The notes beneath the pieces were generated by a model, which was given only the letters and a program-made list of their open reading frames with translations, was not told where the DNA came from and did not search any database. Source: a virus (Duplodnaviria; Heunggongvirae; Uroviricota; Caudoviricetes). From it: a stretch of DNA of 40,559 nucleotides. Positions 224-28,056 of the stretch are shown here, one piece after another. The stretch is from positions 1 to 40,559 of the IMG/VR virus record IMGVR_UViG_2541047813_000005. One strand, written 5' to 3'. Every line of letters begins with the position of its first letter. Within the stretch, counting starts at the first letter, position 1. A program made the translations under genes and the position numbers.

Positions 224-1738
224 GTGTATTTGATATCGTATGTGGCAACAAAAAATGGAGTTACAATCTTGAAAGTAAGCGAGTTATCTAGCCAAATTGG
301 CCGACTTTACGGCTTAAACAACATCAACATAATTATGGGCCGAAACGGTGCGGGAAAAAGTCGTTTCCTTCGTGATATCGAACAAACAATCAGCCAGAAC
401 AAGCAGCAATTTTATGTCCGGTATGTAAGTCCAGAGCGAGCAGGATCGTTCAAGCGTGATGGCACCGTCCTCACAAATATGAGCGACAACCCCGAATGGC
501 TGAGGCACACTCGGGCAGTTAATCAGGCAAGCAACTTCAAAGCTGCATCGGCTATGCTATTTCGCGAGGCCGAGACGCTTTACTTACGTCGACTTGCCAA
601 TACTCCGGAAATTCGAACTGATCTAACGCGAAACTTTCAGACAGACCGATTAAGTAAAATTAATCAGCTTCTCACTAACATTTCGCTCGAGATGGGTAAT
701 GTCGATTATGAGTTTCGATCACTTGTAGATGGTCAGATTATTGATCCGGCCCAAATCAGTAGCGGTGAATCGGAAGCGGTTGCATTAGCCGCGGAAATCA
801 TCTATTTCTTCGACACAATAGATCCGGAGAAATTCAACGTACTCCTCCTCGATGAGCCTGATGTACATCTGCACCCCGACCTCCAAGCTAGACTGGGCAA
901 GCTGATAATCAGTATGCTCGACGAATTTAGAACACACGCGAACAGTATTGCCATATGCTTATCCACCCATAGTTCCCCGCTCGTCTGTTCTCTTGCCGCC
1001 TCCCCATATGTATCAATCGGCACGAAGAGCTTTGCAGTGAATGAAATCTCATTGATACCGGCCAGCGATGAACTTCGAAAGATTGCACCATTCTTCGGGC
1101 ACCCCCTATCGCTTTCTCTTAGCGAAGACGCTGCATTAATTTTGGAAGGAGAGGACGACGAACGAGTCTGGCAACAAGCGGCCAGAACATCACAGGGTCG
1201 AATAAAAATCTTTCCCGTACTAGCAGGTAGCGTAGATCAACAGAGTCAACTTGAGGATTTTTGCGTAGACCTCCTTAGTACACTCTATGACAATCCAATC
1301 GCCTTTTCCCTTCGTGATGGCGATGGTGTAATCAACGAGTCGCTTGAACATCGCCTACCTCTTAAACGCTATCGCTTACGATGCTACGCTATCGAAAATG
1401 TTCTTTTGACTGATTCATGCCTTGCAGTAATGAATGTTACATGGGTGGAATTTGTAGACGCAGCCAAAAAATGGGTTGAGGATAATCAAACACACTCCGA
1501 CATAGCGTTGATTGCAAAACTAATGGAATCGAACGACCGATTGCGTCACAAGAAGATCAAGAAAATCCGCCAACTCGTCTGTGCTATTGTTGAGTGTAAA
1601 AAACCTTGGGAGGTAGTAGTTGGACAAGCAATCGGGGCATTGACCAGAGAAGACCTTGAAAACTCGAATATGTTGATCGATTTTCTTGGAGGAGAGATGG
1701 TCAGCGACGTCATCTTCAGGGACGCAATAAACCCATGA
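224..1738 (+). CDS. ABC-type ATPase fused to Toprim/OLD-like nuclease domain (candidate anti-phage defence protein)
   Basis: 504-aa ORF; Walker A 'GRNGAGKS', Walker B/D-loop 'LLLDEPDVHLHP', H-loop-like 'STHSSP'; C-terminal acidic motifs 'ILEGEDDE' and 'LRDGDG' resembling the Toprim Glu and DxD; likely true start TTG at 269 (GGAG 8 nt upstream). Confidence 0.65.
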   Translation: MYLISYVATKNGVTILKVSELSSQIGRLYGLNNINIIMGRNGAGKSRFLRDIEQTISQNKQQFYVRYVSPERAGSFKRDGTVLTNMSDNPEWLRHTRAVNQASNFKAASAMLFREAETLYLRRLANTPEIRTDLTRNFQTDRLSKINQLLTNISLEMGNVDYEFRSLVDGQIIDPAQISSGESEAVALAAEIIYFFDTIDPEKFNVLLLDEPDVHLHPDLQARLGKLIISMLDEFRTHANSIAICLSTHSSPLVCSLAASPYVSIGTKSFAVNEISLIPASDELRKIAPFFGHPLSLSLSEDAALILEGEDDERVWQQAARTSQGRIKIFPVLAGSVDQQSQLEDFCVDLLSTLYDNPIAFSLRDGDGVINESLEHRLPLKRYRLRCYAIENVLLTDSCLAVMNVTWVEFVDAAKKWVEDNQTHSDIALIAKLMESNDRLRHKKIKKIRQLVCAIVECKKPWEVVVGQAIGALTREDLENSNMLIDFLGGEMVSDVIFRDAINP

Positions 1739-1753
1739 GAATGACCTGATACT

Positions 1754-2149
1754 ATGACCACGATTGATCCGCCCTCATGGTATCAGTATTTATTTTATAA
1801 CCCGCCTCTCAATACACCAAGAGATTGCGGTAAAGTGGAGCAGCATGATTACCAGCTTTATCTGGCGATAAATGATATTGAGCATACGAAAACGAAAGCA
1901 ATGTCATCTAAGACCAATAGTATCTGCGAGCAGTTCCATAAAACGATACTGAACGAGTTTTATCAGGTGACGTTCCGCAAAAAGTTATATGATGATCTTG
2001 AAGCATTACAATCGGTTCTTGATGAATGGCGGGTTCACTATAATAATGAGCGAACCCATCAGGGAAAAATGTGCAGTGGCCGAACGCCGATGGAAACGTT
2101 ACTTGATGGAAAGCACATCTGGGATGAGAAAAACTTAAGCCAGATGTAA
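1754..2149 (+). pseudogene. IS transposase C-terminal remnant (DDE/rve integrase-core fragment)
   Basis: 131-aa ORF abutting the ATPase stop; C-terminal 'EWRVHYNNERTHQGKMCSGRTPMETL' matches the conserved tail of rve-type transposases; no N-terminal or DD part present. Confidence 0.55.
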
Positions 2150-2242
2150 TCTGACAGATACCTTTATAAATAGCCGGTAATTGTCAGATCAGGTCTGATC
2201 TAATACAACTTAACTGTGTTATGAGCAATACTGAGGATGGAT

Positions 2243-3013
2243 ATGGAACCAGAGAAATTTGCTGAAACTGCAATAGGATTTACCAAAAGCCCTCTTGGTA
2301 TCATTGCACTCTTTATTGTTCTCGTTTATGGATTTGCCTCTTTCGTCGTTGGCTTTGGTAATGGCTTATCAGAGCATATAGCTCCCCTTATTTATTTCAT
2401 GGTTTTCTTTCCTGTCATTGTGTTTCTTGGCTTTCTCTGGCTTGTTGCGAAACATCATAATAAGCTTTACGGGCCGTCAGATTTCAAAGATGAAAATAAT
2501 TTTTTAAGAGCGCAAATAGCTACAGCAGCATCATTGACCGCCGCCACAGCAAAACAGCCTGAAAATAGTGCAGGGGTCACTGAAAGCCAACTGCGAAAAA
2601 TCGTCAACGTTGTATCCAATGCAAAACGGCAGAGTAAGCATGAAAAATGGCGAAATCGTATTTTATGGGTGGATGATCGACCAGAAAATAATGTTTACGA
2701 AAGACAGGCATTTGAGGCACAGGGAATAGAGTTCGCTTTAGCTCTTTCAACTGACGAAGCCTTAGAATTGTTAAAAACAAATAAGTTTGCAGCTATTATT
2801 TCGGATATGGATCGCAAAGAAGGGGCGCAAGAAGGTTATGTCTTACTAGAAAGATTACGCGCAATGGGAGACAAAACTCCTTTTATGATCTATGCGTCCT
2901 CAGATCTACCAGAGCACAAGAGAATGGCGAGAGAAAGAGGTGCAATTGGCTCCACTAATCGAGCAGAAGAACTCTTTCAAATTGTCATGGGTGCGATTAC
3001 CAATGGCTCATAA
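2243..3013 (+). CDS. Membrane protein with two N-terminal TM helices and C-terminal CheY-like receiver (REC)-like domain
   Basis: ORF 2237..3013; ATG at 2243 preceded by GAGGA; hydrophobic segments 'LGIIALFIVLVYGFASFVVGFG' and 'LIYFMVFFPVIVFLGFLWLV'; REC-like pattern 'ILWVDD', 'AAIISDMDR', 'FMIYASSD'; AT-rich codon usage. Confidence 0.55.
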   Translation: MEPEKFAETAIGFTKSPLGIIALFIVLVYGFASFVVGFGNGLSEHIAPLIYFMVFFPVIVFLGFLWLVAKHHNKLYGPSDFKDENNFLRAQIATAASLTAATAKQPENSAGVTESQLRKIVNVVSNAKRQSKHEKWRNRILWVDDRPENNVYERQAFEAQGIEFALALSTDEALELLKTNKFAAIISDMDRKEGAQEGYVLLERLRAMGDKTPFMIYASSDLPEHKRMARERGAIGSTNRAEELFQIVMGAITNGS

Positions 3014-3230
3014 CAAAGCCATTAAATTCGCCCCCTACGGCTACGGTTGCCGGGCGCTCACAACGGCCAGTATCTCATTTGTCGATTTGATCGATCTCAT
3101 TGTAAGCACTTCCGGCTAGACTGTTTTGGAATACCGCCATTTTGTTGGTAATGGCTTTTATCTTTAGGCCATAGCCGATGTTATAGAGTTACGGCCTTAA
3201 AAATAGAAGTCATACACTCAATGAAAAACC

Positions 3231-3263
3231 AATAAAAAATGCCAGTCAGCAAACTGACTGGCA
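3231..3263 (-). terminator. Rho-independent terminator ending the leftward lysis operon
   Basis: Hairpin gccagtcag/ctgactggc (3241..3263) followed on the minus strand by a U-run (plus-strand A-run 3231..3240). Confidence 0.55.
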
Positions 3264-3409
3264 TTAAAGTTAGTTGGAAAGGCTTAATTTACTATTTATA
3301 GCCAGTCCTACTCCCACTCAATTATTTACGACAACCATAACCAATTGAGTGATAACACTTTTCCAAGCCTCAACTTTTCCCGTACCGTTTTATATACCGT
3401 CACCGGAAA

Positions 3410-3907
3410 TCAGTGCCACGATTTTTGCTTCTTCAGTGAATCGTATTGCTGCTCGCAGAATTCCCCTGCGATACGATACTTTTCAGCCTCAGCTGCTGTT
3501 GCGTTGTAAACTCGGTTGCTTTCTTCAAGCATGTCGGCGAGCACACCGATGACCTTGCTGGCTGGCGTGCCAGGTGGGAAAGATCCGGTATAGTGTTCGG
3601 CGAGCCGCCTGGTTTTGTCAAGCTCGGCGCGCATGCTGTCAGCAGCGGAATTAGCATACTCAGCATCAGCACGCGCCGCATCGATACGGGATTGTGCTTC
3701 ACGTTCAATTTGTGTTTTCTCCTGCTCACGCTGTGACCTTAACTTATCATCAGCCTGTTTCTGATCTTCCTTCGCCTGCGCATACCCGGCATCGTACTGA
3801 CGGATGCCGTGCACATTCCAGGCAACAACTCCTGATATGACCAGAACAGCAAGCATCGCCACGATAAGTAACTGTTTACGGTATGCTTTTACAAATGCCC
3901 AGATCAT
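3410..3907 (-). CDS. Rz-like i-spanin (inner-membrane spanin)
   Basis: 165 aa; N-terminal TM helix then charged coiled-coil-like periplasmic region; last gene of lysis cassette; overlaps endolysin stop. Confidence 0.65.
3433..3681 (-). CDS. Rz1-like o-spanin lipoprotein embedded in the +1 frame of the i-spanin gene
   Basis: Embedded ORF with signal peptide and lipobox '[12 protein letters not shown]', proline-rich mature part; start codon choice (3681 or 3666) uncertain. Confidence 0.45.
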   Translation of the reverse strand: MRRVLMLSMLIPLLTACAPSLTKPGGSPNTIPDLSHLARQPARSSVCSPTCLKKATEFTTQQQLRLKSIVSQGNSASSNTIH

Positions 3908-4533
3908 ACCGCCAGTACCTTACTTGCTGTGATGTACCGCGCACGCCGGTCGTCGATACCGTTTCTGCCACCATTGATAATCAGAGTTACACGTGCAATA
4001 TCGCCGGTATACTTCATGCATCCTTTGCTGGCGAAGAACCACGCCGCGCTACGAGCCGCATATTCGTCCTGCGCCAGCAGTTCAGGGCTCTCCAGCAGGT
4101 CAACCTTCAGACCGTTTCCGCAATCACGATAGTTATTCAAACCGGTAATCTGGATAAGTCCGCGCCCTCGGTAATTCCAGCCATCACCAGGGGCATTGTT
4201 CCCCATGCGTTTGCTGTATACCAGATTTGCGATCGCGCGCTGGCGCTCAAGTGGCAATGGTGGTTCACCAGCACGGCGCCCCAGTGCATTAGCCTGCCCC
4301 TGAGTGAGACGCCCAGCCCGAACGAAGTTAGCCAGTCCGCTGACACTGTAGTTGAAATTCTCCTCCAATCTGGTGAAGCCCCCAGACTCATGCCCGACCT
4401 GAGCAATAAACATTGCCTGATCTTCTGGTTTGCTGATACCAAACTCTTTCATAGCAGAAGTTATATGCGAGAACCAGCGTGCGGCCAGCGCCTCGCTAAT
4501 ACCAGCAGCTCGCTGGAATTGTTTAATCTCCAT
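3904..4533 (-). CDS. Endolysin, glycoside hydrolase family 19 (chitinase-like) type
   Basis: 209 aa; '[12 protein letters not shown]' and '[12 protein letters not shown]' motifs typical of GH19 phage endolysins; between holin and spanins. Confidence 0.8.
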
Positions 4534-4831
4534 GTTTAGACCTCGTTATTTTGAAAATCTGAACGACGTTACCGCGAGTTTTAAGAACCGCAGCAAGCAT
4601 GACAGCGTTGATAATGACCTCAGATAAATCCACAGCCATTGGCGTGCGTAACCAGATTGCATAGACGACACGAACAGGAATACTGGCCGCAGCAACAATA
4701 AGGAAATAAGCAAGCCACCCTCCCCATCTTCGGTGTTGTGAACCGTTACGCCGGAATGTGACAACACGAATTGCTATACCAGTACAAATAACTGCATTGG
4801 TGATAAGCAAAAAAAACTCATGCGTTACCAT
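4523..4831 (-). CDS. Putative holin/antiholin (small membrane protein)
   Basis: 102 aa with several hydrophobic helices, immediately upstream of and overlapping the endolysin gene. Confidence 0.5.
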
Positions 4832-5222
4832 CGTCTTTTCTCCCCGGAATTAACTCGCGTGGATTATCTGAACGGTGATAGAGCCAGATGCCAATTCGAA
4901 CTGCGACGATTGCTGACACGAATGCACCAGCAGAGAAAACAATCCCTTTCTCAAAAGAGTCCTGTGTGATGGTAGGGATCAGGGTGGCTATGCCGATAAG
5001 AATTGATGCTGCTGGTTTGTAAAAGAGAAGACCGCAAAGAAAGCTGAGCATCGACAGGAGCACCCGGCGGCGGATTGGATATTCTACAGCAGAGGTAACA
5101 AAAATTACTGCACCAGCCAAAGAACCCAACGCCACTTCTGGAGGTACTCCAGCTATTACTGCCGCAAGAGAACTCATACTAAGCCACTGATTTAAAGACT
5201 CACTAGTTAGTTGAACTGACAT
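4818..5222 (-). CDS. Putative holin / lysis-cassette membrane protein
   Basis: 134 aa, multiple predicted TM segments, first gene of the lysis cassette, overlaps next gene by 14 nt. Confidence 0.45.
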   Translation of the reverse strand: MSVQLTSESLNQWLSMSSLAAVIAGVPPEVALGSLAGAVIFVTSAVEYPIRRRVLLSMLSFLCGLLFYKPAASILIGIATLIPTITQDSFEKGIVFSAGAFVSAIVAVRIGIWLYHRSDNPRELIPGRKDDGNA

Positions 5223-5378: not shown

Positions 5379-5740
5379 ATGAATAACAGACATAATTGCT
5401 TTGACGTGATCAGGCTTATCGCATCACTTGTAGTCCTTGTAAGCCATCAATACCCAATTAGCGGCAGACCTGAGCCTTGCTTTTTCGGACTTACGTCGAT
5501 AGGTGGCATTGCTGTAATTGCTTTTTTCGCCCAACTAAACGTAACATCTTCGAAAAATATGCAAAGATTAGGATCAATCAGCGGATGATTTTTATCCATT
5601 CATTTTGCGCGGGTAAGTTATGTGGTGGGTTATCGGCATCCTTTCCGTGGTTCTCATCGTGGCGACGCTTGTCGTTAGGTCACATCTGCAGGATATTGAT
5701 AATGACTATTAGCCATAAGTGGTTTCAACGCTTTGGGTAA
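5379..5740 (+). pseudogene. Truncated/frameshifted acyltransferase-3 family (O-antigen acetyltransferase-like) lysogenic-conversion gene remnant
   Basis: N-terminus 'MNNRHNCFDVIRLIASLVVLVSHQ' matches the acyltransferase_3 start motif; reading frame breaks after about 70 aa; only about 120 codons remain before the convergent tailspike gene. Confidence 0.5.
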
Positions 5741-8078
5741 TGTAGTAGGCCACCCAGTTACCTGACTCATTAAATCTGTAAGCACAATTCAAACGAATCG
5801 GACCGATATTATTGAATGTGCTGAGCATTGTCCCACCAATACCATTTTTAACCAAAACTGTTGGGTTAGCAGATGATGACCCGGCTATCTTTATGTAAAC
5901 AATATCACCAACTACGGCAGACACTTTATCCAGCTCAATTGAATAGGTGAAGGCACCTGTACCAGCACTCATGATGATGTAGTACCTGGAGGGGTCAAGC
6001 CTTGGTTCTATTGTTAAAGTCCCAGCTGCTGCCACAGTGTGGTCGAGAAAGGTTCTCACCTGGAGGCTTGTATTTTGTGGAAACCTCGCCCTTGCCCTGT
6101 TGAAAGCGGGATCCATCACTGCGTAAAGTGGGCGAACGTTGTTTCTGTAGGATCTAACCAGAACATCACTACCGTGGAAGTCGTTGCTTTGTGATCCAGA
6201 AAGTGAGTGAACTGCCTCGACCTGGTTAATTGTCCCCTCTCCGACATAGCAGTCAGGGCTATTAACCACAAAATCGACGAACCTGATGTTTTGCGCAAAG
6301 TATGAGTTCAGGCGGAATGTGCTGTTTGTCGAGTTAACTACTGACTGAGCATTTGTGATTGAGTTGCCGACGATTGCGTGAATAGAGTTGATAGTCACTT
6401 CCTGGCAGTCAACCAGAAGCACCGCATCGTAAACAAGGTCAGTGGCAAATCCATCACTTTTATAGACTTCAATGTTTCCGATTTGCAGGGATGGCCTGTT
6501 TCTGGCTCGTACTCCGTTTTGCTTAACGTTGACGTGTACGTTATCGATAAATCCACCTGGCTCGCTGGCTGGGTTGGTTAGGTCGATTCCAACAAATGCC
6601 CCAAGCCCTTCGCTGTCCTTGACAACAAACCCTTCAACGCCGTCACTCAGTTCGACAAACTTCCACCAGTTGTTTGTGTTGAATCTGATGTCTACACCTA
6701 CGTTACCTCGAACGGACTTCATCTTAACGGCCACGCACTGGAATTGCGTACCTTCAACCTGCTGCACGTTATAGCTGCCGTATCCAGTGACATGCACTGA
6801 GCCGCTAAAAGCGTCGCCAATCAGCATGCCATTTACCCACGAATACTGTAGCACCGTCAGGTCATCACGCCCCTGTTGAGGACCGAAATGCGCTCCTAAT
6901 TTGAACTTCGCCCGGTGCGCAGTGAACATTTCCTCCCTGAGTGGAGTAAGAATACCGTACCGACCATTTCCGTTTTCCAGGCGAATCATGAATTTTCCGA
7001 TGTCGGCTTCTCCCTGGGAATAACTGGACTCCGGGTAGCTAACGGCCAGACCTACGGTCGATGCTGAGTCAGCATCCTTCACGCATAACTGGGTTTCTGT
7101 CCCAGCCGTATAAATTTTCACGCCATAGGGAACGGTTACGCACGCCGTCAGTGCGGAATCCCCTGTATGGTAGTTATCCATATCCAGAGAAACACCATTT
7201 GTAGGGCTCACCAGATATTTTCCTGCTGGCCAATAGAGTACCTTAGCTCCGCAATTGGACCAGCGGTTTAGGGCAAGAGTGTCATCTGCAATACCATCTC
7301 CCTTTGCTCCGAAGTGGTAAGGGGTAAGAAGATAGGTGTTGTGCTGATGTTGAGTAATAGTTACAGAATTAGCATAAGGTTGTTTAACTGCAACTAAAGC
7401 ATCCCCCTTTCCATCGGAAGAACTTGCTAACTGAATAAGCACATCAGATGCTGAACCAGATGGAGGAATAACAACAATCGCATTACCATCATTATCAAAT
7501 GCTGGCATCATATTCCGCCGAACTGCTGCTGGAGGTAACTGATTTATTGGCTCAGGAACTCGGAGAGTTCGGCTAAGGTTAGAGAATACAATGGTATCTA
7601 CATAGTTTTTTGTAGCTGCATCCTGAGGGTCGCGTGGGTCTTTCAGATTACGAATATAGTTATTAAGTGCGTCATACCAATTCGCTATACTGGATGGCTT
7701 ACACAACGCCAGCCGGAACCAGCTTCGAACCTGCTGAATCAGCATCGTTAGCTTATCAAAAGCATCCTCATGCACTTCTGCAAAGAACTTACCCTGATTA
7801 CGCAAATCAGTTTCCTGCGTAACCGGGAGGTCTCGTGATATAGAAATCTGATAACCGTTAGCCAACGCCTTCGACAGAATTACATTACCGCCGTTGTACC
7901 CTCCCGCACCAGTTACTGTGTAATCAGTATCAAGAGCCAGCACAGCAATATTTTCATCAAGGTCAACCACCTGAACAACCAGGTCTGATTTTTTGAAAAT
8001 ACGGAAGGTATACGGAAATGATGTCGTAACGCCGTTACCTGTGTATTCGTTGTGGTCAACTTCGGTTGAGACCGTCAT
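5709..8078 (-). CDS. Tailspike / tail fibre protein (receptor-binding)
   Basis: 789 aa; N-terminus 'MTVSTEVDHNEYTGNGVTTSFPYTFRIF' resembles the conserved particle-binding domain of podovirus tailspikes; Gly/Asn/Val-rich body consistent with beta-helix. Confidence 0.75.
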   Translation of the reverse strand: MTVSTEVDHNEYTGNGVTTSFPYTFRIFKKSDLVVQVVDLDENIAVLALDTDYTVTGAGGYNGGNVILSKALANGYQISISRDLPVTQETDLRNQGKFFAEVHEDAFDKLTMLIQQVRSWFRLALCKPSSIANWYDALNNYIRNLKDPRDPQDAATKNYVDTIVFSNLSRTLRVPEPINQLPPAAVRRNMMPAFDNDGNAIVVIPPSGSASDVLIQLASSSDGKGDALVAVKQPYANSVTITQHQHNTYLLTPYHFGAKGDGIADDTLALNRWSNCGAKVLYWPAGKYLVSPTNGVSLDMDNYHTGDSALTACVTVPYGVKIYTAGTETQLCVKDADSASTVGLAVSYPESSYSQGEADIGKFMIRLENGNGRYGILTPLREEMFTAHRAKFKLGAHFGPQQGRDDLTVLQYSWVNGMLIGDAFSGSVHVTGYGSYNVQQVEGTQFQCVAVKMKSVRGNVGVDIRFNTNNWWKFVELSDGVEGFVVKDSEGLGAFVGIDLTNPASEPGGFIDNVHVNVKQNGVRARNRPSLQIGNIEVYKSDGFATDLVYDAVLLVDCQEVTINSIHAIVGNSITNAQSVVNSTNSTFRLNSYFAQNIRFVDFVVNSPDCYVGEGTINQVEAVHSLSGSQSNDFHGSDVLVRSYRNNVRPLYAVMDPAFNRARARFPQNTSLQVRTFLDHTVAAAGTLTIEPRLDPSRYYIIMSAGTGAFTYSIELDKVSAVVGDIVYIKIAGSSSANPTVLVKNGIGGTMLSTFNNIGPIRLNCAYRFNESGNWVAYYITQSVETTYG

Positions 8079-26584: not shown

Positions 26585-28056
26585 GCATATGGATCGTACT
26601 CGGTAAGCGACTTGCCTTGCTGGTTCTGCTGCCCGGGAATTCGCAGACGCTTCGACACAGGGAACGCAAACGTCAGCAGTAGCGCATCGCCTTTACCAGG
26701 AGAACGCCCAAGCCGCTCTTTGATATCTTCCTTCGGTTCGATAACGATTTTACCGTCCACGCGAACTTTGTACTCTGCCGCCGACAGGTCGTCCGCTGTT
26801 TCCTGGTCATCCAGCATGCCGCCCAGCCTCAGCCATGTCTTGCATGAGTTGAACATCTCCCCACGCTTGTTGAGCATCTGCGGGTCAGTAGACGCGCCAC
26901 CGAACGGAACAAGTTGCCATGTGCGCCCCCAACCGTCACCGATTGACTTCAGCCCGGTACCGTAACCGAAGTCGATGAACACCGCGTCAGCCTGATACTT
27001 GTCTTCAAAGTCAGCGATACGCTTTGCCATAATCAGATCGTCAGTGGTCTTGTTGCCGGTCCACAGCACCTTACTGTGCAGCCCCTGCCGCAGGTATATC
27101 ACAGCGTCATCAACGCCGGAGTATGCCGGGTCAACGCCGATTATCACCGGAGCATGTGCAACCTGCGCAGCGGTTACCACCCGTTTCATTGCCTCGTCAG
27201 TAAGGCCGGTAGGGATAAACTGCAATTCAGATGCATCCGGGAATATACCGCGCACACGGATTTTAACGAAGTCGCTGTCTTCCCCGTAGTCATCAACCCA
27301 TTTCTGCAACTGCTGTTTGTTAGTGCCTTCCACCGTCCGGCTGTCAATCTGCGCAGTTTTCCAGCGGTGTTTATATTTGCGGAAACATTCGCGAAAACGC
27401 CCGGTGTTACGTGTAGGGTTTCCGAACGCCACCCAAATAATCTCAGTGTCTTCGTCCGTAAGCGCACCCTCGGCAACTTCCCACACCAGATCCGCAATGT
27501 TCGACGCTTCATCAAACACCACGATGATGCGTTTGCGCTCGTTGTGTAGTCCGGCGAATGCCTCGGTGTTGTGCTCAGACCAGGGTATTGCGTCAGCCCG
27601 CCACCGCTTGTCGTGCCCTAGGTCATTGCTGTACATCGCGGTAGCGGTACAGGTAAACCAGTCTTTCGTGATAGCAAGGTTCGACCACTTGATAATTTCC
27701 GGCCAGGTCTTCGTTCGTAGCTGGTTGTCGGTGTTGGCGGTCACCACGACCTTACAATCCTCGCAAGTGGACATGCCCCAGTTGATCAGCATTGAGATGA
27801 ATGCGGATTTACCAATACCGTGACCAGAAGCGCGTGCCAGCATAAGCGGCTGATAGCGCGTCTCTGGATTCTGCAGGTGATCACGTATCTCTCGGAACGC
27901 ATCGGCCTGCCACTGACGTGGACCGGTGGCATGTGCCAGTTCAGTCCCCTCTTCCCCCCACGGGAACGCATAGAGGGCATAACCAAGCGGATCGTGAGTG
28001 AACCCTGCAATATCCTCGATCAACTGCTCTTCAGGAGATAACGCTGTATCTTTCAC
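26581..28056 (-). CDS. Terminase large subunit
   Basis: 491 aa; ATPase-like N-terminal region and nuclease-like C-terminal region; overlaps terS stop by 4 nt. Confidence 0.8.
   Translation of the reverse strand: MKDTALSPEEQLIEDIAGFTHDPLGYALYAFPWGEEGTELAHATGPRQWQADAFREIRDHLQNPETRYQPLMLARASGHGIGKSAFISMLINWGMSTCEDCKVVVTANTDNQLRTKTWPEIIKWSNLAITKDWFTCTATAMYSNDLGHDKRWRADAIPWSEHNTEAFAGLHNERKRIIVVFDEASNIADLVWEVAEGALTDEDTEIIWVAFGNPTRNTGRFRECFRKYKHRWKTAQIDSRTVEGTNKQQLQKWVDDYGEDSDFVKIRVRGIFPDASELQFIPTGLTDEAMKRVVTAAQVAHAPVIIGVDPAYSGVDDAVIYLRQGLHSKVLWTGNKTTDDLIMAKRIADFEDKYQADAVFIDFGYGTGLKSIGDGWGRTWQLVPFGGASTDPQMLNKRGEMFNSCKTWLRLGGMLDDQETADDLSAAEYKVRVDGKIVIEPKEDIKERLGRSPGKGDALLLTFAFPVSKRLRIPGQQNQQGKSLTEYDPYA

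Follow-up and report, generated by a model that had tools for sequence, protein, structure and literature searches.

The window analyzed here, a 40,559-nucleotide stretch of DNA from a tailed-phage record (IMGVR_UViG_2541047813_000005, positions 1 to 40,559), carries near its left end a gene at 2243-3013 on the plus strand. Sequence and structural modelling predict that its product consists of a two-helix membrane hairpin followed by a CheY-like receiver (REC) domain, and we refer to it as the two-transmembrane-helix receiver protein, or 2TM-REC. The central result is that this gene is a single-gene integron cassette, stranded outside any integron in E. coli, and that its hairpin belongs to a large modular superfamily whose members are carried by integrons, prophages, plasmids and P4-like elements. 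The architecture had been proposed earlier from a reading of the letters alone (the original prediction), and is borne out by Pfam, AlphaFold2 and Foldseek. The parts of the gene are listed below, with the evidence for each.

2243-3013, plus strand: coding sequence of 2TM-REC, 256 amino acids (aa); RefSeq, homologues and purifying selection.
2291-2356, plus strand: predicted transmembrane (TM) helix 1, aa 17-38, PLGIIALFIVLVYGFASFVVGF; AlphaFold2 and hydropathy.
2369-2452, plus strand: predicted TM helix 2, aa 43-70; AlphaFold2 and hydropathy.
2447-2506, plus strand: cytoplasmic juxtamembrane motif AKHHNKLYGPSDFKDENNFL, aa 69-88; signature of the superfamily of the N-terminal module.
2507-2650, plus strand: variable helical linker, aa 89-136; pLDDT below 50 over most of its length.
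2651-3001, plus strand: REC domain, aa 137-253; Pfam, AlphaFold2, Foldseek, profile alignment to PDB entries and residue counts.
Key REC codons, plus strand: D144/D145, 2672-2677; acceptor D188, 2804-2806; R191, 2813-2815; S220, 2900-2902; R240, 2960-2962.

The program-made list of open reading frames (ORFs) gives 2237-3013 on the plus strand, or 258 aa. From RefSeq and the family alignment the start was set to the ATG at 2243, which yields the 256-aa protein WP_000433086.1, labelled in RefSeq only as 'response regulator'; a GAGGA Shine-Dalgarno sequence (2233-2237) lies six bases before this ATG. Hydrophobic peaks (Kyte-Doolittle, 19-residue windows above 1.6) are centred on aa 18-34 and aa 51-63, and an AlphaFold2 model, built from an alignment of 26 homologues, has a short N-terminal helix followed by helices at aa 17-38 and 43-70. 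Hydropathy and model concur in predicting a two-helix hairpin with both ends inside the cell (N-in/C-in), its helices being joined by a very short periplasmic loop of about 4-8 residues. Such a hairpin would hold the receiver at the cytoplasmic face of the inner membrane. In an alignment of the N-terminal module (N-module; alignment A3), P17, G19, I20, I21 and F24 are invariant in the first helix, and F52, F56, P57, F64, L67 and V68 in the second. The same holds for H71, L75, P78 and D80 of the juxtamembrane motif, where K74 and Y76 are at least 90% conserved; the consensus of this motif is HHxKLYGPSDF, and its superfamily-wide form HHxKLYxPSDF.

Several independent comparisons bear on the C-terminal half. 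Pfam PF00072 (Response_reg) matches aa 142-237 of the 258-aa ORF at 31.7 bits, a narrow pass over the gathering cut-off of 30.2, and relatives match the same profile at E-values down to 2e-14. In the AlphaFold2 model, aa 139-253 form a (beta-alpha)5 fold of five strand-helix units with pLDDT 79-91; in a Foldseek search of the PDB the top matches were all receiver domains, the best being 6ont (target-normalised TM-score 0.86, root mean square deviation 2.0), and a Foldseek search of viral structures gave generic REC matches only. As modelled, the REC fold is unambiguous, and the non-REC fold that structure prediction could have returned did not appear. The three motifs first read as receiver signatures had been placed correctly: ILWVDD forms beta1 (D144/D145), IISDMDR forms beta3 (acceptor D188) and MIYASS forms beta4 (S220).

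To describe the pocket, residues were counted in 118 close and 25 divergent full-length relatives (143 sequences). D144, D145, D188 and R191, the residue three positions past the acceptor (D+3), are identical in 143/143, and S220 is kept in 116 of the 118 close and 15 of the 25 divergent relatives. The conserved lysine on beta5 that characterises the receiver superfamily is missing: profile alignment to the RcsC REC puts R240 at its place, in agreement with the original remark that this lysine was not obvious. Position 240 is Arg in 108 of the close relatives and Lys in 5; among the divergent ones it is not conserved (R 10, D 6, N 3, M 2, S 2, Q 1, K 1). Because the lysine is replaced, the domain is an atypical receiver; it is this beta5 Lys that, in receivers, links phosphorylation with the conformational switch. 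Compared with CheY, the beta3-alpha3 loop, SDMGRKEGPQEGY, has about three additional residues. Codon 190 (2810-2812), at acceptor+2, specifies Asp in E. coli and Klebsiella (SDMDR) and Gly in 110 of the 118 close relatives, and in canonical receivers the acceptor+2 position tunes autodephosphorylation.

The best named matches of the domain are hybrid-kinase receivers (NCBIfam RcsC, 1.6e-5; PDB entries 2ayz of RcsC and 3m6m of RpfC), and the cREC profile PF20274 scored 17.7 bits, below its cut-off of 27. The nearest REC outside the family, at 43.6% identity, is the mid-region of a 1509-aa 'SAV_2336 N-terminal domain-related' protein, whose gene lies on a Rhizobium plasmid, with genes for a trypsin-like peptidase and a MoxR ATPase next to it. 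This REC has the motifs LWVDDxPxNN, TDMGRPEG, IIYA and G..GTTN..ELF, and the subtype as a whole is marked by LWVDDxPxNN, (S/T)DMxRxEG..G, IY, G..G.T and ELF. REC domains without kinases have been described among the effector domains of the vWA-MoxR and iSTAND2 ternary conflict systems (PMC7159879, PMC8195603), and have been predicted to be kinase-independent, nucleotide-responsive switches (Kaur, Burroughs, Iyer and Aravind, eLife 2020 and 2021; PMC7159879, PMC8195603). The REC of 2TM-REC is of a subtype also present in a kinase-less vWA-MoxR locus, and we therefore class it as a conflict-system receiver and not as half of an ordinary two-component system. The annotation of the 40.5-kb window contains no histidine kinase or Hpt gene, and none was found in about 25 homologue contexts, as expected from the original observation that a cognate kinase was lacking.

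Full-length homologues (about 256 aa), with identities of 58-92%, occur in three phyla (Pseudomonadota, Chlorobiota and Bacteroidota). Their hosts include Enterobacterales, Vibrio, Alteromonadales, Pseudomonas, Alcanivorax, Nitrosomonas, Sulfuritalea and Acidithiobacillus; identity is 88% for Chlorobium and 58-67% for Bacteroidota. Synonymous differences are saturated (pS 0.72-0.97), with pN at 0.05-0.28 overall; by region, pN is 0.05-0.20 in the hairpin module, 0.06-0.29 in the REC domain and highest, 0.09-0.44, in the linker. With synonymous sites saturated and pN low, the conservation stems from selection and not from recent transfer; these comparisons indicate that ORF 2243-3013 is not a chance ORF, and that the constraint on the protein must be independent of the host. 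Among 5426 complete E. coli genomes, 28 have the islet and with it the gene; a scan of about 100,000 species-representative genomes with exact peptide patterns, which under-counts the gene, gave about 20 carriers. The gene is rare within any single species and is not a core-genome gene; its relatives travel as cargo of mobile elements.

The nature of this mobility is seen in the surroundings of the homologues. Three Vibrio genomes have the gene inside a superintegron array, alongside small unknown cassettes and toxin-antitoxin ones; a 123-nt repeat is present there in nine copies within the locus, one of which begins at the stop codon of the REC gene. In Ancylomarina (Bacteroidota) the gene stands between copies of a repeat that occurs five to six times with 1-2 kb spacing, and in Acidithiobacillus four ends of the form GGCT..CAGGCGTT.GGC occur, one of them downstream of the gene. 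In Chlorobium, Sulfuritalea, Psychroserpens and other loci a GTT box is visible by eye about 25-30 nt before the ATG, with a complementary ..AAC box at or just past the stop codon. In all homologous loci similarity extends 5' only as far as a GTTA box, which precedes the ATG by about 25-28 nt. Most sites escaped both strict attC regular expressions (GTTRRRY / RYYYAAC) and an ungapped score for arm pairing, and the cassette calls rest instead on array repeats and aligned boundaries. In E. coli the two ends of the cassette are as follows.

2219-2242, plus strand: cassette 5' leader, starting from the crossover G2218|T2219 of GTGTTATGAGC and including GAGGA 2233-2237; aligned boundaries.
3008-3160, plus strand: probable attC relic; inverted repeats and folding, judged by eye and by fold.

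The 5' boundary is intact in E. coli: the sequence GTGTTATGAGCAATA.. at 2216 is nearly identical to the leaders of Chlorobium and Sulfuritalea, and in blastn comparisons DNA similarity with the Pectobacterium copy starts exactly at 2219. At the 3' end, TCATAAC overlaps the stop codon, and the ten-base arm AAAGCCATTA (3015-3024) pairs with TAATGGCTTT (3149-3158). The bottom strand of this segment has a fold with paired ends (z = -2.2), and the 3' end is also terminator-like, a hairpin at 3136-3155 being followed by a run of T in a terminator scan. Homologues have intact attC sites at the matching position, and because the 3' GTT box is degenerate in E. coli we call its attC a relic. Cassette origin accounts for the fact that the gene is always solo. 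The leader has no sigma-70-like promoter. In E. coli the gene is probably expressed by upstream transcription reading through into it. In Pseudoalteromonas, group II intron reverse transcriptase/maturase genes on the opposite strand lie on both sides of the cassette (locus L024, 6031-7368 and 8852-10036, minus strand); such flanking is the arrangement expected of introns that target attC sites.

The N-module has a much wider distribution than the 2TM-REC protein itself. A full HMMER search with aa 1-104, run against 50%-identity cluster representatives, gave 1333 representatives at E<=1e-3, of which 799 had E<=1e-10. In most of 150 listed proteins the module is near the N-terminus, and typical lengths are 150-330 aa. 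No Pfam, NCBIfam or PADLOC model covers it, either in 2TM-REC or, for Pfam and PADLOC, in the 150 relatives, among which PADLOC found a single TIR and weak TM+CARF matches, all confined to C-termini. The PHROGs family phrog_26238, of unknown function, does cover the module and matches 143 of the 150 best representatives. A cluster-name look-up for ten siblings returned metagenomic entries only.

What follows the hairpin varies greatly, 119 C-terminal tails falling into 35 mutually unrelated groups. The largest are PD-(D/E)xK-like (38/119) and REC (33/119); other tail domains are pYEATS, winged helix (HTH_45), NERD, HamA, DUF4760 and a nucleoside deoxyribosyltransferase-like domain, and a TIR effector was matched once. 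Residues D183, E196 and K198 hardly vary within the nuclease branch, and a model of this branch resembles the nuclease domains of Can2/Cdn1, McrC and restriction enzymes, with probabilities of 0.9-1.0 but weak E-values. The N-modules of the REC and PD-(D/E)xK branches align to each other in hhalign with a probability of 99% (E 8.6e-18).

Members of the superfamily are found in the V. cholerae superintegron (P0307 and P0345, reached from a Vibrio sibling query), on a Vibrio plasmid and in Rhizobium phage RHEph21. The temperate, transducing Pseudomonas phage F116 and its relative H66 encode a 303-aa protein that carries the hairpin module and is labelled only as hypothetical (gp41 in F116; locus L074, 4001-4912), and its gene sits between portal and head genes. 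In Elizabethkingia phage EKP1 and an enterobacterial prophage contig, a stand-alone module ORF comes right after a complete holin-endolysin-Rz cassette, and in one viral contig the N-module gene is directly 3' of a cI/S24-type repressor gene. These phage positions are typical accessory-gene (moron) slots. The copies in EKP1 and in prophages that follow the lysis cassette are 'split' versions, in which a module-only ORF of 103-121 aa overlaps the start of a second small ORF (L047, 5941-6306/6297-6578; L075, 3501-3812/3809-4078); the second ORF of one such pair has pentapeptide-like repeats.

The gene contexts considered come from about 25 loci of the REC branch and about 20 of the superfamily at large. 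No neighbour of the REC gene is conserved among the Dickeya, Vibrio, Pseudomonas, Klebsiella, betaproteobacterial, Pseudoalteromonas, Buttiauxella, Pectobacterium and Kluyvera contexts. Relatives of the gene occur as mobile cargo in P4-like elements, beside KAP NTPase or NERD proteins, and in prophage accessory slots. The psu-int hotspot of P4 (Rousset) was considered and rejected: in Dickeya and Pectobacterium the gene sits past the primase gene, at the opposite end, and is therefore P4-like cargo only. In Pseudomonas cavernicola (L008, 5553-6922) it lies about 1 kb past adenosine deaminase-like and Ham1-like genes, also near a 958-aa protein with no Pfam domain, in what may be a defence-type locus.

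The window itself matches the E. coli chromosome NZ_CP095086 at 100%, in the order yfgI, a 3.3-kb islet and then a prophage, which is inserted at the 3' end of guaA. The islet contains an ATPase gene, the remnant of an insertion sequence (IS) integrase core and the REC gene, and its AT-richness was rightly noted at the outset, the prophage having a GC content of about 0.50 and positions 1501-3000 one of 0.41. The two neighbours of the REC gene are the following.

224-1738, plus strand: ABC/OLD-like ATPase, 504 aa, ending 505 bp upstream of the REC gene.
1754-2149, plus strand: IS integrase-core remnant (rve_3) that travels with the cassette; Pfam and shared block.

Domain matches of the ATPase are to AAA_15/AAA_21, with a weak one to DUF4435 (aa 307-401); in PADLOC it is matched best by PDC-M01A (1e-17), AriA and fused AriAB, and from its sequence it looks like a stand-alone OLD/PARIS-like ATPase-nuclease. 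The original prediction drew attention to this nearby ATPase-Toprim gene and suggested that its co-occurrence with the REC gene be checked, and here the distribution is unfavourable. The ATPase gene is confined to the islet as it stands in E. coli and Klebsiella, and no ATPase stands next to the REC gene in any other genus examined. In Kluyvera a 91%-identical REC gene adjoins guaA without it, and window positions 1824-3322 (1.5 kb, about 90% DNA identity) are common to Kluyvera and a contig with relaxase, NikA and KAP-NTPase genes, again without the ATPase. In Klebsiella an IS3 element splits the ATPase gene, and the REC protein is intact and 100% identical. The ATPase is a neighbour of the REC gene and not its partner.

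Further along the window, the 3' end of guaA (about 3308-3325) is the attachment site at which a prophage of about 37 kb starts, running onward to 40559. This prophage has a gene for a T7 gp14-like core protein, a holin-holin-GH19-spanin cassette (3410-5222) and a tail fibre gene (5709-8078), and a tRNA-Arg lies inside it at about 27590-27666, beside the terminase region (coordinates converted from RefSeq). In other strains guaA follows directly, and at locus L079 a relaxase-bearing element occupies that junction.

What the protein does can be approached from these data. A conflict or defence role is plausible, because its relatives are mobile-element cargo and its REC subtype is that of kinase-less vWA-MoxR systems; to this extent the original view of 2TM-REC as a defence effector stands, but the ties to the ATPase, to Detocs and to SLATT proteins that went with it are unsupported. 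The mechanism that we tentatively put forward, and to which as a whole we give somewhat less than an even chance, is that 2TM-REC combines switch and output in a single protein active in conflicts involving phages or mobile elements: the REC switch would drive hairpin assembly and, through it, membrane damage. Receiver domains are usually regulatory, not catalytic, and the REC would be the switch. Its Asp pocket would be loaded without a kinase, whether by a ubiquitous phosphodonor of the acetyl phosphate type, by another phosphate-bearing ligand or by a phage product; acetyl phosphate phosphorylates receivers without kinases. As the cassette must work across host phyla, the input would have to be universal or invader-derived, and kinase-free loading of this kind would explain how the cassette can function in any host phylum. 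The part played by the lost Lys may have fallen to the invariant Arg191. REC self-association would then change, and the change would pass via the linker to the hairpin module, and the hairpins would assemble and perturb the membrane, resulting in growth arrest or abortive infection. The kinase-free loading of the pocket, and the relay to the hairpins with the ensuing perturbation of the membrane, are the weakest steps of the model.

A number of points weigh against it. The beta5 Lys is not conserved in divergent members, which makes classical phospho-switching doubtful. The 2TM-REC family is known from sequence, no publication mentions WP_000433086.1, and PADLOC is empty both for the protein and for the N-module. 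Several contexts of the REC gene are plain housekeeping neighbourhoods, and extreme sequence conservation is unusual among immune genes. Moreover, siblings carry an active-looking PD-(D/E)xK domain (a nuclease-like fold) or a TIR domain on the same hairpin, and on grounds of parsimony this would make the hairpin an anchor or a sensor and not the lethal portion of the protein.

Comparison with known systems places the protein more precisely. The REC domains of vWA-MoxR (VMAP) and iSTAND2 systems resemble that of 2TM-REC in subtype and in having no histidine kinase. 2TM-REC differs in being a fusion to a 2TM hairpin within a 256-aa single-gene cassette; no vWA, MoxR, VMAP or NTPase partner is found in any of its contexts; the REC subtype alone is shared. 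With the receivers of RcsC, RpfC and TorS, the first two of which are among its best named matches, it has in common the VDDxPxN motif of beta1 and a C-terminal receiver on a membrane protein; unlike them it has no kinase core or Hpt, its beta5 Lys is replaced, and its longer beta3-alpha3 loop has an invariant Arg.

Membrane effectors of immune systems offer a further parallel. Cam1 (TM-CARF), Cap14 (2TM-SAVED), SLATT proteins and PycTM have N-terminal TM helices and a cytosolic alpha/beta sensor, and follow a proposed logic in which ligand-driven oligomerisation leads to membrane damage, the second messenger being made by a partner cyclase. 2TM-REC differs from them in having no partner, and its TM module is far more conserved and is also found on nucleases and TIR proteins. 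By analogy, it would work at most like the membrane effector-sensor fusions of CBASS, Pycsar, type III CRISPR and Detocs. Membership of the SLATT proteins, which are described in PMC7159879, was rejected: the profile check proposed for SLATT-like 2TM families gave no Pfam match for the protein (E<=1), for the N-module (E<=10) or for the 150 N-module relatives (E<=0.01). A holin was likewise rejected, as there is no holin Pfam match, and in phages the module is encoded either behind a holin-endolysin-Rz cassette that is already complete or at some other place.

Detocs is defined as a three-gene operon of dtcA (histidine kinase), dtcB (stand-alone REC, acting as a buffer) and dtcC, of which transmembrane-effector variants exist. 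2TM-REC is like DtcC in joining a receiver to a putative cell-damaging output, and an abortive-infection logic is possible; but in DtcC the REC is N-terminal and the effector C-terminal, the reverse of the order in 2TM-REC. Neither a kinase nor a second REC is encoded in the window or beside the gene in homologue loci, and no PADLOC family matches the protein at E<=1. With the three-gene set absent, the order reversed and PADLOC silent, membership of Detocs was rejected, and the resemblance to Detocs receiver-effectors suggested originally did not hold up.

Epona, a cassette of the V. cholerae superintegron that combines Mrr_cat with a two-TM 'holin', is anti-phage in E. coli and is nearly restricted to V. 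cholerae, and integron cassettes have been documented as a source of small anti-phage systems (bioRxiv 10.1101/2024.07.02.601686). By description, Epona is like the nuclease siblings of 2TM-REC, being a single-gene integron cassette with a two-TM module and a cytosolic domain; in contrast to it, the N-module family is widespread and the siblings have no Pfam Mrr_cat match. As the comparison is one of descriptions and identity is not established, a tie between Epona and the superfamily is a lead only. Literature on WP_000433086.1, on kinase-independent membrane RECs in defence and on integron-cassette function contained nothing on the 2TM-REC family.

Among the alternatives to the switch-plus-output model, the one with most to recommend it, unlikely as we judge it on balance, reverses the polarity of the protein. 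The hairpin would be a constant anchor or sensor, responding for example to a loss of membrane potential, to the entry of phage DNA or to the action of a holin, and the C-terminal domain an exchangeable output; the REC, sitting in the 'effector slot', would bind or sequester a target, drain phosphoryl groups or bind a nucleotide. Such an arrangement would fit the classical effectors that the N-module carries in siblings (PD-(D/E)xK in 38 of the 119 tails, TIR, HamA and NERD), the conservation of hairpin residues far beyond the needs of a passive anchor, and the listing of REC among kinase-less VMAP and iSTAND2 effectors, a protein of that kind containing the nearest outside REC. On the other hand, REC domains have no known enzymatic or toxic activity, other C-terminal partners (winged helix-turn-helix, pYEATS, CARF-like) look like sensors, and nothing indicates what the hairpin would sense. 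Decidedly less probable is a role outside conflict, as an orphan protein of response-regulator type that would act as a membrane-tethered phosphate sink or connector on resident phosphorelays, tuning envelope, biofilm or stress responses. The matches to the hybrid-kinase receivers RcsC and RpfC, the intact Asp pocket, the loci among housekeeping genes and the strong purifying selection, which suits a physiological role, would all agree with this; the rarity of the gene (28/5426 and about 20 of about 100,000 genomes, as given above) and the lost beta5 Lys would not, nor would a hairpin module common to nuclease, TIR and pYEATS proteins and to phage accessory genes. Furthermore, because the gene crosses phyla on integron cassettes, it cannot depend on the kinase or Hpt of any one host.

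Two further explanations make 2TM-REC part of a larger system. In the first, which we regard as very improbable, the upstream ATPase-Toprim protein would sense and 2TM-REC would execute; the genes are adjacent and in the same orientation in the E. coli and Klebsiella islet, and the ATPase matches the defence profiles named above, but an IS remnant lies between them and the pairing is largely refuted by distribution, that is, by the Kluyvera copy, the relaxase contig, the IS3-split Klebsiella copy and the other contexts. The other, to which we give next to no credence, takes 2TM-REC for a receiver-effector of the Detocs type, a DtcC with a membrane effector whose kinase has been lost or is encoded apart from it. 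A REC with a membrane segment recalls the transmembrane-effector variants of Detocs; however, DtcA, DtcB and DtcC are nearby in no locus, the reversed order and the lack of a PADLOC match count here too, and the REC subtype groups with those of vWA-MoxR systems. A bolder reading, which we consider on the doubtful side, is that the hairpin with HHxKLYxPSDF marks a large class of single-protein immune or conflict devices, with about 1300 clusters at 50% identity and at least 35 alternative C-terminal domains, which would spread across bacterial phyla chiefly by way of integron cassettes and phage accessory genes. In this reading 2TM-REC would be the first kinase-free, membrane-coupled receiver infection switch, reading a universal metabolite such as acetyl phosphate or a phage ligand through a pocket rebuilt around an invariant Arg.

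New here are the identity of the gene as a cassette, its purifying selection across phyla, an unannotated modular superfamily and the tie to kinase-less conflict receivers. The N-module has been missed by Pfam, NCBIfam and PADLOC v2, though it is present in well-known phages (F116 gp41). Even without a defence role, a mobile cassette protein that is 58-92% identical across three phyla with synonymous sites saturated calls for explanation, as does an integron cassette outside an integron beside guaA in E. coli, Klebsiella and Kluyvera. If the model is true, 2TM-REC would be a compact, host-independent defence or conflict module of 0.95 kb circulated between phyla by integrons, and would provide a concrete model for receiver signalling without histidine kinases, a question raised by the comparative genomics of vWA-MoxR systems.

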